Part shown: piece after piece, positions 1-3,000 of the stretch | Position numbering within the stretch: the first letter of the stretch is position 1 | Layout of the letters: the number at the start of each line of letters is the position of its first letter | IMG/VR virus record: IMGVR_UViG_3300029922_000007 | Coordinates: 32,001-96,000 of that record | DNA from: a virus | Length of the DNA stretch: 64,000 nt | Direction: 5' to 3' (one strand) | Made by a program: the position numbers

Positions 1-3000
1 GTTTCACTAGATTTACTTGCTTACCATTAAGCATTCCGAAAGGTTCAACCGATGCTACTTCATTTTCTGAGATTTTCATATTTATTTTTCCTTATCGTAG
101 GCTTCGCGAATCTTTTTCACATGGAAGTGATTTTTAATATCTTGCTTATTCTTTTTAGCTTTTAAAGCGCCAGAAATTCCATTAAACCAAGCATATCCAG
201 CCTGTTCTGGATCGTTGCCTAGGCGATGTTCAATATGGGTAAGATGCCTATCGGCGATAGTATCTTCAAGTCCCTTATTGTCTCTCATATAGTTGCTAAG
301 ATTTTGACCAGTGAGAGCTAAAGCTTTGCCATGTTTGGTCTTGAGGTCTTTGTGTCCCTTGATAGTATCGTGGATAGTATTAGGCATTAAGGCATATTTT
401 CCATACGCTACCTCGCCATTAGCAGCAGGCTTATGGTTTGTATCTGCACCATTTCTACTCTCAACTTGAGCCATTGCTCGCAGCATTCTTCCATGGTCAT
501 AAGCTTGGGCTTGCGGCTTTGGTTGCTGAATACTAGCTGGAGCCCTATTTCCCGCATCTGAAGTATTAGTTCCGCCAGCTAATGCACCGGCCATACCAAG
601 AGCAATACCTGCGTTTTTGAGAGCGCCTTTTTCCAAAGAAATAAGGATAGATTCGCCTTTCTCTAAAAGTTCATTTCCTGTAGTATTGAGCTTATCTCTT
701 AAAAATAGCGCTTTCTTTTCATCTTGCAAGTCTTGCGAGGTTGGTTTTTTAGGGCCATCCATCCCTATCTTATGGTTGTATCCGGCACCATTAGAATTGT
801 GGGTGCCATGGATAGTATAGTTACCAACATTGATCTTATATCGGCCTTCACCGTGCATATTTTTAGGATTTTTACCGGCTGGATTAAACGAAGACTGAGA
901 CTTAATGCCATGCATTCCATTTAGACCGGAAATAAATTGGTGAAGATGACCAGACGCAGCATTGGCATGAGAGCTTAATAGCGCCGCCGCACCAATAGCG
1001 GCCGTCCTTAAAGCACCCTTCTCAAGAGGTACTTCTTTTTTGCTGACTTTTTCAGGCAGCTTCTTCCCCTTAGTCGCTTCATCCCATTCATGAACACCAG
1101 CTTTACCGCCAAGAGCTTTTTCGCCCTCTGCCGTGTGGCCCCAACGTCTCTGGGCGTCCGATACGAATGGTTTCATGAGAGGGTTAAGCTTCTCAGCTTT
1201 GTGCATTGGGCAAAGACTATCTTTTTCAGATGCGGCAAGCTTACCCATTTGAGGTTCGTAATTAAGTTTTGCTGTAAGGTCTCCTTCATCAGGAACCCTA
1301 GGTTCAGCGGAATCTGGCTCGTGATGGTAAGTCTTGATAGTTTGCGGCCCACGCTTAAGCTCAGCATTACCAAATTCAATACCGGCCTCAAATGCGGTTT
1401 TTGCGCCAGAAGCCTTGATTTCGTCATGCAAGTCTTTACTGACAGTAATGTGAGCCTGGAATGCATAAGGAACTGGATCGCCCATACCAGCGAACTTTCC
1501 ATTTAGCTCTTTCATTTTCTCAGCAGAATTCCCGTGGAGCTTGATTACATAAATATCGTCGCCGTTTTTACCTTGGAACTTTCCAGGTTCAATCTGGGTA
1601 TTTTTAGCATCCGGAGGATTAAGGGGAAGATGTTGGGCTAATTGGTGGATAGCGTGCCCATGGTCCTTCTCCTTGTTGAATACTTTGATAGTTGCATGAT
1701 AGCCAACATTATTTACTGGATTATGAGACTGCCCATCAATTTTTACAGGGAATGCGAGCATCATACCGGAATTAGCTCTAGAAGCATAACCCTCGGAATC
1801 CTCGTTCTTGTATAGATTTGATAGATAGCAAGTCATATCTTATTATATCACTTTAAATGTTAGAAATCAAGAACTTCTGCGAGAAAGTGGCTTTGATCTT
1901 TCCAAGTAGTTCTTTTTTCTTCAATTCCAGCTCTTCAATTCGAAGCTGGTAGATTCTTGGACCAGGCCCTGAAGATGACTGAGAAATTCCATCGCGGGAA
2001 AGGGATTGAGATGTATTAATAAACATAGTAGCAATATTGCCCAACATATTGATGGCAGCAATCGTACCTATTGCATCATTGACAACAGTAGGAAACTGAC
2101 CCTCCACCTTAGAAACTGAACAAGTATAAACAATTTGCCAAAATCCGGGCACAAATGTTAATTGTGAAAAAACATTAATATATGGTATACCGCCATAAGC
2201 TCCCACCCCACCGCCAGTCGCGACCGAATAGGCTCCAAGAATTGGTACCACATTCACTATACCCTTTGAGAAGTTACTACTCTCAAGCCAAGAACTGGGG
2301 ATCTGAAAGACCTTGTAGCCATCCGAACTTACGATCGAAACATCCTGCACACTCAGTACAGGGCCCTGCTCAGTCTTAAGATAAATGAACGATTTATAAA
2401 GGTTGATATCGAATGGAACCTTATCGGTAAACTGTTCTCTGGTCAAGGTGATCTTGCAAAGCAGTTCAACCTCGTTCATCGCTAAACGGATTTGATCCTT
2501 GATGTCCTCAGCACTATAGGAATCTCCATTAGGGAATGCCAGTGGGATACCCTTCAAATACCTAGAAACCAAAAGTTGTGGAGTAAGAACGGGTTCCGAC
2601 CTACTCATCAATCCAGAGGTACGAGTACAATGGACTGGGTATCCTGCTGCGTAAAATTGCTTATTAGTAGCAAAATCAGGTGCTACTGGAGTACCACTCA
2701 AAGCATCCAAAACTGGAGGAAAGGGCTCATATGGGGCCTGTGGTTGGTCAAAAGGAGGACCTACTGGTGGAATTGGAGGATTAGCCATTAGCAGCACCCA
2801 CTGTTGAAGGATTCGACTGCGATCATATTTTGAACAGTCCAATTCCAAGTCAAGATGCCCATAGTCAAGCTAAACATCACATTCCCACTGGCAGGAGCCC
2901 TACCAGCTGAATTATAGCCGGGCAAGGTGATAGAGAACACGGAGCCATCGTTTGGATCCTGGGTGGCCGTATAGGTGAAGGTGAGGCTAGGATCAAGGCT

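Follow-up and report, generated by a model that had tools for sequence, protein, structure and literature searches.

Polyvalent and ejection proteins are a main route by which phages deliver ready-made enzymes together with their DNA. The polyvalent proteins carry several unrelated effector domains in one polypeptide encoded among the late or virion genes; their lysozyme domains have been proposed to breach peptidoglycan at invasion, and zincin-like peptidase domains within the chain are credited with most of their processing (Iyer et al. 2017, PMC5512222). The protein considered here, P0001, most likely belongs to this group. It is encoded in a 64,000-nucleotide stretch of viral DNA (IMG/VR record IMGVR_UViG_3300029922_000007, positions 32,001 to 96,000; hereafter, the window), which lies on one contig of 166,169 bp from a myophage resembling the Myxococcus phage Mx1. 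Within the P0001 chain two short hydrophobic segments (hereafter, leaders) each follow a copy of the motif L-E-K-G, a putative maturation-protease site, and precede, respectively, a middle module and a lytic transglycosylase domain. Transmembrane segments, signal peptides and the periplasm do not come up in the main text of PMC5512222, and a module-specific hydrophobic leader lies outside the polyvalent proteins as described there.

Two further systems are close enough for comparison. Gp16 of phage T7 is housed inside the head and ejected, and it unites a periplasm-acting transglycosylase with membrane-inserting regions that are harmless in the virion (PMC8954989). P0001 similarly joins a transglycosylase to segments of predicted membrane affinity and has a predicted head location, and no sequence relationship between the two was detected. 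The membrane regions of gp16 are masked by folding and exposed by refolding, whereas the segments of P0001 adjoin a putative protease site; again unlike gp16, these segments are short and resemble N-terminal signals, and the phage is contractile-tailed. The second system is the prohead protease (T4 gp21; phiKZ, SPN3US gp245). It recognises a short motif at which capsid, scaffold and internal proteins are trimmed, and it removes N-terminal propeptides, inside the prohead, from proteins that are later ejected into the cell (PMC10052503). The recurrence of one short consensus motif across capsid, scaffold and internal proteins has its likeness in the present phage. No case is reported in which such trimming exposes a signal-like hydrophobic N-terminus, and PMC10052503 is silent on transmembrane segments.

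Leaders and modules of P0001

The preliminary description of this DNA, made by inspection of the sequence, placed two cryptic signal-peptide-like segments behind L-E-K motifs at residues 271 and 401, spanning window positions 570–1026. Translation of the gene bears out this placement, with the codon of L271 at 1026..1024 and that of G422 ending at 571. Each segment has the basic residue and the Ala/Gly-rich hydrophobic run that had been described, and the A-x-A ending ascribed to the first recurs in the second (Table 1). Residues 274–293 and 404–422 are the two most hydrophobic stretches of P0001, with best 15-residue Kyte-Doolittle (KD) means of 1.33 and 1.35. Over 12 residues the means are 1.61 for leader 1 and 1.82 for leader 2; over 19 residues they are 0.86 and 0.99, which rules out a classic transmembrane helix (threshold 1.6) for either. 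A C-terminal sorting signal of the sortase LPXTG, exosortase or MYXO-CTERM type was also ruled out, the basic residue standing before the core and a folded domain following it.

An AlphaFold model of residues 271–584 was calculated from a 103-sequence alignment and has a mean predicted local distance difference test score (pLDDT) of 85. In this model leader 1 forms an isolated helix (pLDDT ~59), and leader 2 and the linker that follows it have scores below 50; neither leader is packed against any domain. Leader 1 passes into the middle module with no linker between them, and leader 2 reaches the transglycosylase through a variable Pro-rich linker.

In layout both leaders correspond to Sec signal peptides, with a positively charged n-region, a hydrophobic h-region (7–15 residues in such peptides) formed by a short and weakly hydrophobic Ala/Gly-rich core, and small residues at positions -3 and -1. 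Signal peptides of this type are N-terminal, whereas the leaders begin at residues 274 and 404, and they are moreover conserved to the level of the enzyme core, as detailed below. The leaders may thus be said to work like Sec signal peptides without being members of that class, because they are internal and would become N-terminal only after the predicted cleavage. A likeness is also evident to signal-arrest-release (SAR) domains, in which an N-terminal, weakly hydrophobic membrane segment of approximately 20 residues, rich in Gly, Ala and Ser, stands ahead of a muralytic enzyme. The composition of leader 2 fits this description, but its core is limited to 13–14 residues, its 19-residue KD mean falls short of 1.0, and its position is internal. 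Unlike a SAR domain, which refolds into the adjoining enzyme, leader 2 is not contiguous with the enzyme: a variable, disordered linker of 25–40 residues intervenes, and the leader remains unpacked.

The domain into which leader 2 leads had been called lysozyme-like. Judging by the fold matches of the model and a near-invariant Glu-Ser pair, it is a lytic transglycosylase. The domain is modelled as all-alpha with pLDDT above 90, and superposition with VIA-align gave Z-scores of approximately 10–12, the closest structures being MltC (PDB code: 4c5f; Z 11.8, root-mean-square deviation 2.7 for 122 aligned residues) and Cj0843 (7lam; Z 11.6), followed by Slt70 (1qsa; Z 10.1) and gp144 of phiKZ (3bkh; Z 9.9). 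The same enzymes were the top matches from Foldseek, with probability 1.00. Family 1 transglycosylases are characterised by an all-alpha lysozyme-like fold and by a Glu followed by a Ser on the first core helix, and both are found here. The catalytic pair, Glu459-Ser460 (codons at 457..462), is retained as Glu in 99 and as Ser in 97 of 102 aligned homologues. P0001 itself gave no match to the SLT profile PF01464, for which three homologues have precomputed matches and a fourth, P0057, scores below threshold. A search of PDB sequences using a profile built from the leader and transglycosylase alignment found nothing.

The remaining modules are less readily assigned. The N-terminal domain is probably a 2H phosphoesterase, as suggested by two histidines in H-x-T motifs (H47 and H129) that do not vary across 49 homologues; its profile matches to 2_5_RNA_ligase2, Acb1 and LigT, and that to PDB entry 2d4g (E 0.16), are all sub-threshold. 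The small module of residues 196–270 has no Pfam match. Local phmmer placed it in 91 of 254 fetched relatives, where it usually stands immediately before L-E-K-G. The middle module contains several conserved His residues and is predicted with a pLDDT of 87 when modelled alone. It has no match in Pfam or PHROG and no clear structural relative, the best fold-search score (Z 6.2) being at noise level, and a homologue search restricted to this region returned 3 proteins only. Many of the weak matches were to lipid-binding helix-grip, TULIP and KA1-type folds; these too are at noise level and carry no evidential weight. The module is closed by a second copy of the motif, to which the preliminary description does not refer; it has no hydrophobic run of its own, and in its place homologues have L-[DE]-[KR]-[SG].

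Table 1. Positions in the window of P0001, its parts and the other genes discussed
Feature	Position	Strand	Basis or remark
P0001, whole gene; modular polyvalent protein, 584 residues	82..1836	minus	Open reading frame and translation; virion gene block
N-terminal domain, probable 2H phosphoesterase (residues 1-195)	1252..1836	minus	Invariant H47, H129
Small conserved module (196-270)	1027..1251	minus	Local phmmer among fetched relatives
Motif copy 1, L-E-K-G (271-274), putative maturation-protease site	1015..1026	minus	Precedes middle module
Leader 1 (274-293): basic R277, 12-residue Ala-rich core, A-N-A end	958..1017	minus	KD, conservation
Middle module (294-390): helix, four-stranded sheet, long helix	667..957	minus	Confident models, pLDDT 85-97
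Motif copy 2, L-E-K-G (391-394)	655..666	minus	End of long helix of middle module
Motif copy 3, L-E-K-G (401-404), putative maturation-protease site	625..636	minus	Before leader 2
Leader 2 (404-422): basic K407, 13-14-residue Gly/Ala-rich core, A-L-A end	571..627	minus	KD, conservation
Variable linker, Pro/Gln/Ala-rich (423-445)	502..570	minus	High column entropy, low pLDDT
Lytic transglycosylase (lysozyme-like) domain (446-584)	85..501	minus	Fold matches, Glu-Ser
Major capsid protein; L-M-K-A at residues 8-11 (6049..6060)	4684..6081	minus	PHROG 752
Acidic scaffold-like protein; nine [LMI]-x-K-[SAG] motifs	6115..6993	minus	Shuffle test
Putative prohead protease	8402..9886	plus	Weak PHROG 1028 match; Mx1 counterpart annotated putative prohead protease
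Peptidase_M15_3 protein, 219 residues	15249..15908	minus	Peptidase_M15_3 domain, E 6.5e-12

Conservation of the leader among relatives

Relatives of P0001 numbered 135 in a word-index search and 603 in an exhaustive one; their architectures are shuffled, with NUDIX, VTC and GNAT modules swapped in. None of 50,697 named phages was matched in a tblastn search with P0001. One relative, P0065, carries the NCBI label of a Rhabdochlamydiaceae metagenome-assembled genome, which may hint at a host or reflect contamination of the bin by phage DNA.

The pairing of motif and leader was counted in the 177 fetched proteins in which a transglycosylase core is preceded by 45 residues or more, a leader being scored where [LMIVF]-x-[KR]-[GSAN] was followed by a hydrophobic window no more than 85 residues upstream of the transglycosylase. 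The pair is present in 169 of these proteins (~95%), and a further 7 have the hydrophobic segment with a variant of the motif; elsewhere in the same proteins the background of motif plus hydrophobic window is 0.034 per 85 residues. Within P0001 alone, under a loose criterion, chance is a more serious consideration, given that approximately 11% of degenerate motif matches in the genome's proteome (48/441) precede a hydrophobic window. Taken by itself, P0001 would thus offer a modest case for a pairing that is not due to chance, and the comparison with relatives is decisive. The preliminary description had named, as refuting its proposal, fusions that are neither exported nor membrane-associated together with a lack of conservation, in homologues, of the hydrophobic segment following the motif; the search of relatives shows the segment to be strongly conserved.

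The leader is also selective for what it precedes. Every copy of the middle module examined (14/14) is preceded by motif and leader, the latter ending in A-[HN]-A-A, and where the same motif stands before other modules, with GNAT and NUDIX as mapped examples, 57 of the 66 sites are not followed by a hydrophobic segment. The leader is restricted to the transglycosylase and the middle module.

Column by column, the 102 aligned homologues have Lys or Arg at position 407 in 82 cases, hydrophobic or small residues at 93–100% throughout columns 409–421, and Ala at the A-x-A positions 418 and 420 in 84 and 75 cases, respectively. Mean column entropy amounts to 1.74 bits for the leader, 1.59 for the enzyme core and 2.98 for the linker between them. 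Because a regular expression for the motif served to trim the sequences of this alignment (A1), columns 401–404 are conserved by construction, and the count of 169/177 is the unbiased one. In distant relatives the hydrophobic and small-residue character of the leader is kept and its sequence is not; two distant transglycosylase homologues, P0251 and P0242, have instead ordinary, strongly hydrophobic N-terminal segments resembling signals.

The arrangement is at its simplest in stand-alone genes of 190–203 residues, where a short propeptide leads through the motif and the leader to the transglycosylase. Two related contigs, of 168.5 kb and 81.6 kb, have such a gene at the syntenic position, so that the motif persists even where there are no modules in need of separation.

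A cultured relative extends the comparison. Mx1, a contractile-tailed Myxococcus phage of 169.6 kb (see PMC10720576), was reached only through capsid synteny and the profile; its capsid protein is 47% identical to the major capsid protein of the window. The syntenic counterpart of P0001 in Mx1 is a 1479-residue protein annotated 'NUDIX hydrolase' (L001:16690-21129, OR576727), in which GNAT, ART-PolyVal (PF18760) and NUDIX domains are followed, inside the chain, by a leader and transglycosylase. Residues 1066–1232 match the leader and transglycosylase profile from the motif Lys onward with a conditional E of 1.7e-18, and the pairwise blastp comparison with P0001 gives 29% identity (E 8e-9). The leader of Mx1 stands after a variant site, L-S-K-S. 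The region that follows the transglycosylase in this protein has no Pfam match and appears ParB-like by eye only, and the adjacent gene encodes a PI3/PI4-kinase-like and a HipA-like domain.

P0001 is assigned to the polyvalent proteins because its syntenic counterpart in Mx1 carries this set of domains. Like the proteins described in PMC5512222, P0001 has several unrelated effector domains in one polypeptide encoded among virion genes, and it draws, with its relatives, on the same repertoire of 2H phosphoesterase, lysozyme, NUDIX, GNAT and ART-PolyVal (the last in Mx1), for which processing into units is expected. Unlike many of those proteins, P0001 has no zincin-like peptidase domain detectable with Pfam.

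The motif as a candidate maturation-protease site

L-E-K-G occurs three times in the proteome of the window, against 0.75 expected, and all three copies lie in P0001; the exact tetrapeptide is accordingly ruled out as a motif common to the head proteins at large. What the proteins of the virion block share is the wider pattern [LMI]-x-K-[SAG], which has 144 matches in the proteome of the genome. The acidic scaffold-like protein contains nine of these where shuffled sequences would give 1.3 (p ~1e-5), at positions conserved in Mx1 and in the related contig L006. The copy at the N-terminus of the capsid protein is conserved in the same two phages. The motif is found also at the N-terminus of the portal protein, and it is over-represented in several further proteins of the block. 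For the portal-proximal and downstream genes, orthologues have it at corresponding positions, and in the polyprotein it marks the boundaries between modules. A motif shared by the capsid N-terminus, the scaffold and other head proteins is what is expected of the substrates of a prohead protease.

It is therefore the prohead protease, rather than a built-in peptidase, that is indicated by a motif common to capsid and scaffold. A processing peptidase of the zincin-like MPTase type, common among polyvalent proteins without defining them, gave no Pfam match in P0001 or its parts, although a divergent one is possible. On this circumstantial evidence L-x-K-[G/S/A] is probably the cutting site of the prohead protease. 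The putative protease gene itself encodes a C-terminal tail (~9548..9631) that is a protein-level copy of the N-terminal arm of the capsid protein (~5977..6060), including a motif in the form L-Q-K-A, and the same copy is found in Mx1 inside its protease gene of 1239 residues. Known prohead-protease motifs end in Glu (L/I-x-E in T4, S/A/G-x-E in phiKZ and probably A-x-E in SPN3US); in HK97 capsid maturation the P1 residue is Lys. The predicted P1 in the present phage is Lys, unlike the Glu-ending motifs of T4, phiKZ and SPN3US.

The gene of P0001 sits between the capsid gene and the sheath region, and this slot is kept in Mx1 and in two other contigs. Just downstream lies a gene of 164 residues on the minus strand (genome C1:31585..32079, corresponding to window positions -415..79), with orthologues at L003:4569-5066 and L006:6180-6680. 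Its product has four [LMI]-x-K-[SAG] motifs (p ~0.004), at least two of them at positions conserved in the L006 orthologue, and may be another processed virion protein. The virion block is interrupted by genes resembling HNH or GIY-YIG homing endonucleases, at window positions 4043..4579 (minus), 7669..8451 (plus) and 9907..10599 (plus) and at genome positions C1:22004..22915 and 17570..18397. The first of these and the two genome genes were recognised by PHROG matches, and those at 7669..8451 and 9907..10599 by reading the sequence. Further along the window, the Peptidase_M15_3 protein begins with an amphipathic or hydrophobic stretch and has a linker rich in Pro, Glu and Lys, and it is likely to be an endolysin separate from the transglycosylase of P0001.

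How the leaders may act

P0001 is best read as a polyvalent protein of the virion, most likely packaged in the head of this Mx1-like contractile-tailed phage and ejected. The explanation to which we give tentative preference, at somewhat below an even chance, is that the prohead protease cuts the packaged protein at the motifs, and that the leaders so exposed take the transglycosylase and the middle module to the membrane or the periplasm. The precursor, with its modules joined by L-x-K-[G/S/A], would be packaged into the prohead. In the producing cell the leaders would be masked, because they lie 273 and 403 residues inside the uncut chain, and after maturation cleavage each fragment would begin with its own leader. 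Once the fragment is ejected, its leader would bring it to the cytoplasmic membrane or the periplasm, the site of peptidoglycan, either inserting directly from the periplasmic side or using the Sec pathway of the host. Modules that act in the cytoplasm, namely the 2H phosphoesterase here and NUDIX, VTC and GNAT in relatives, would travel without a leader. Cutting would be needed because, in an uncut chain, the presence of two leaders, of GNAT between the leaders (as in P0009), or of sequence after the transglycosylase (as in Mx1) would bar the envelope modules from both reaching the outside. The persistence of the motif in stand-alone genes likewise speaks for a need to cut. The protease-activated targeting put forward in the preliminary description is in this way partly supported.

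A number of observations weigh against this explanation. The leaders are conserved as strongly as the enzyme core, which in our judgement, made without a comparison set, exceeds the needs of a plain signal peptide; a sequence-specific contact fits this level of conservation better. The hydrophobicity of both leaders over 19 residues lies below the transmembrane threshold. The stand-alone form with a propeptide of 16 residues could undergo Sec export in the producing cell, in competition with packaging. As for the protease, the capsid protein has L-M-K-A and not L-E-K-G, so that the link between substrates is the short, degenerate [LMI]-x-K-[SAG], and Pfam assigns the putative prohead protease to no family. 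Neither P0001 as a whole nor its four parts found a match in Pfam or PHROG searches, and PHROG annotation of the flanking genes toward the sheath is uninformative; this poor annotation leaves the neck or tail as alternatives to the head for P0001. Nor is there an evident reason for a contractile-tailed phage to carry a wall enzyme in its head, or an evident route by which that enzyme would reach the wall. The segments, their conservation and restriction to two modules, the transglycosylase fold, the enrichment and conservation of the motif, and the synteny are observed; cleavage, head location, ejection and membrane targeting are all deduced.

The strong conservation of the leader could instead mean that it is a docking or packing peptide acting inside the capsid, or a prime-side recognition element of the maturation protease, with no role at the membrane and an incidental hydrophobic appearance. 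An analogue is offered by encapsulins, in whose HK97-fold shells cargo-loading peptides attach to the inner face. Such a role would account for a leader that varies far less than the adjoining linker, has small residues fixed at set positions and always abuts the putative cleavage motif. Hydrophobicity is too low for a classic membrane helix, low AlphaFold confidence in a segment unpacked on its own domain is as expected of a peptide that binds a partner, and peptide mimicry for incorporation into the head appears already to be present in the protease tail that copies the capsid arm. Other features speak against it. Only two particular modules have the leader, and GNAT, NUDIX and others follow the motif without it; a polyprotein may have two leaders, though one docking signal per chain would suffice; distant relatives keep the hydrophobic and small-residue character of the leader and not its sequence; and P0251 and P0242 have ordinary signal-like segments in its place. 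On balance we regard a docking or recognition role as unlikely, if well short of negligible.

The two homologues just mentioned, with their classic N-terminal segments, lend themselves to a second alternative, in which P0001 is not a virion protein at all and is instead a late enzyme of the lysis type, secreted or tethered to the membrane. The hydrophobic segments would then be N-terminal or internal Sec signals or signal-anchors used in the producing cell, with A-x-A perhaps the site of trimming by host signal peptidase and L-E-K-G simply a conserved piece of their polar start. The stand-alone forms of 190–203 residues can indeed be read as secreted proteins, with a positive N-region, 12 hydrophobic residues and an end of signal-peptidase type (A-N-A in P0175), and the virion location of P0001 is something we infer. 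The position of the gene within the virion block is however fixed in the present phage, in Mx1 and in two contigs, and the genome has a separate endolysin candidate in the Peptidase_M15_3 protein. The same motif stands before modules of cytoplasmic type without a hydrophobic segment, and it fits the wider pattern that abounds in the scaffold-like protein and occurs at the capsid N-terminus. Left uncut, chains with two leaders, with GNAT between them or with trailing sequence as in Mx1 would have a topology that is impossible or wasteful, and there is no obvious reason to fuse 2H, NUDIX, VTC or GNAT domains ahead of a lysis enzyme. A lysis-type enzyme outside the virion accordingly seems distinctly improbable.

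Two further proposals keep P0001 in the virion and appear less probable still, to about the same degree. In the first, the segments are membrane helices that associate with one another and build or anchor a conduit for DNA across the inner membrane, as proposed for the membrane regions of T7 gp16; cut and uncut chains would serve alike. Fixed small residues stand at positions 412, 414, 417, 418, 420 and 421, and larger hydrophobic residues tend to occupy 411, 415 and 419 (the last two more strongly), in a pattern that resembles a glycine zipper and is typical of tightly packed membrane helices; conservation equal to that of the enzyme core would also suit such packing. T7 gp16 provides a precedent for a transglycosylase combined with membrane-inserting regions masked by folding (PMC8954989). 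Cores of 12–14 residues with 19-residue KD means below 1.0 are however neither long nor hydrophobic enough to span the membrane stably, a basic residue before the core and a conserved A-x-A after it are features of signal peptides, and there would be no explanation for how closely the leader is coupled to the motif, in stand-alone genes as well. Head-borne conduit proteins are not known to be required by contractile-tailed phages, which also counts against a conduit.

The second proposal is a stricter form of the targeting explanation, in which the segments are cryptic Sec signal peptides that the maturation protease uncovers, the fragments, ejected unfolded into the cytoplasm of the next host, being exported to the periplasm by its Sec machinery and signal peptidase. 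If this were true, the phage would be using host secretion to deliver envelope effectors that are made beforehand and injected. The idea that the segments are chance or low-complexity Ala/Gly-rich spacers, only modestly unlikely from P0001 alone and in keeping with their low AlphaFold confidence, is scarcely credible and effectively refuted by the conservation data, namely the 169 of 177 relatives set against the background and an entropy level with the enzyme core where the adjoining true linker is far more variable.

The relatives, approximately 170 in number, point to a rule that can be read from sequence, in which a protease motif is followed by a signal-like leader only ahead of modules directed to the envelope. 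The matching leader in Mx1, which is cultured and genetically tractable, makes this rule testable. If protease-activated targeting is correct, maturation of the capsid would at the same time switch on the targeting of proteins, and modules acting on the envelope would be predictable from sequence, the middle module of P0001 being the first candidate. The long-standing question of where head-borne wall enzymes act would become directly testable, and the short leader cassette could serve as an export tag that is switched by a protease.

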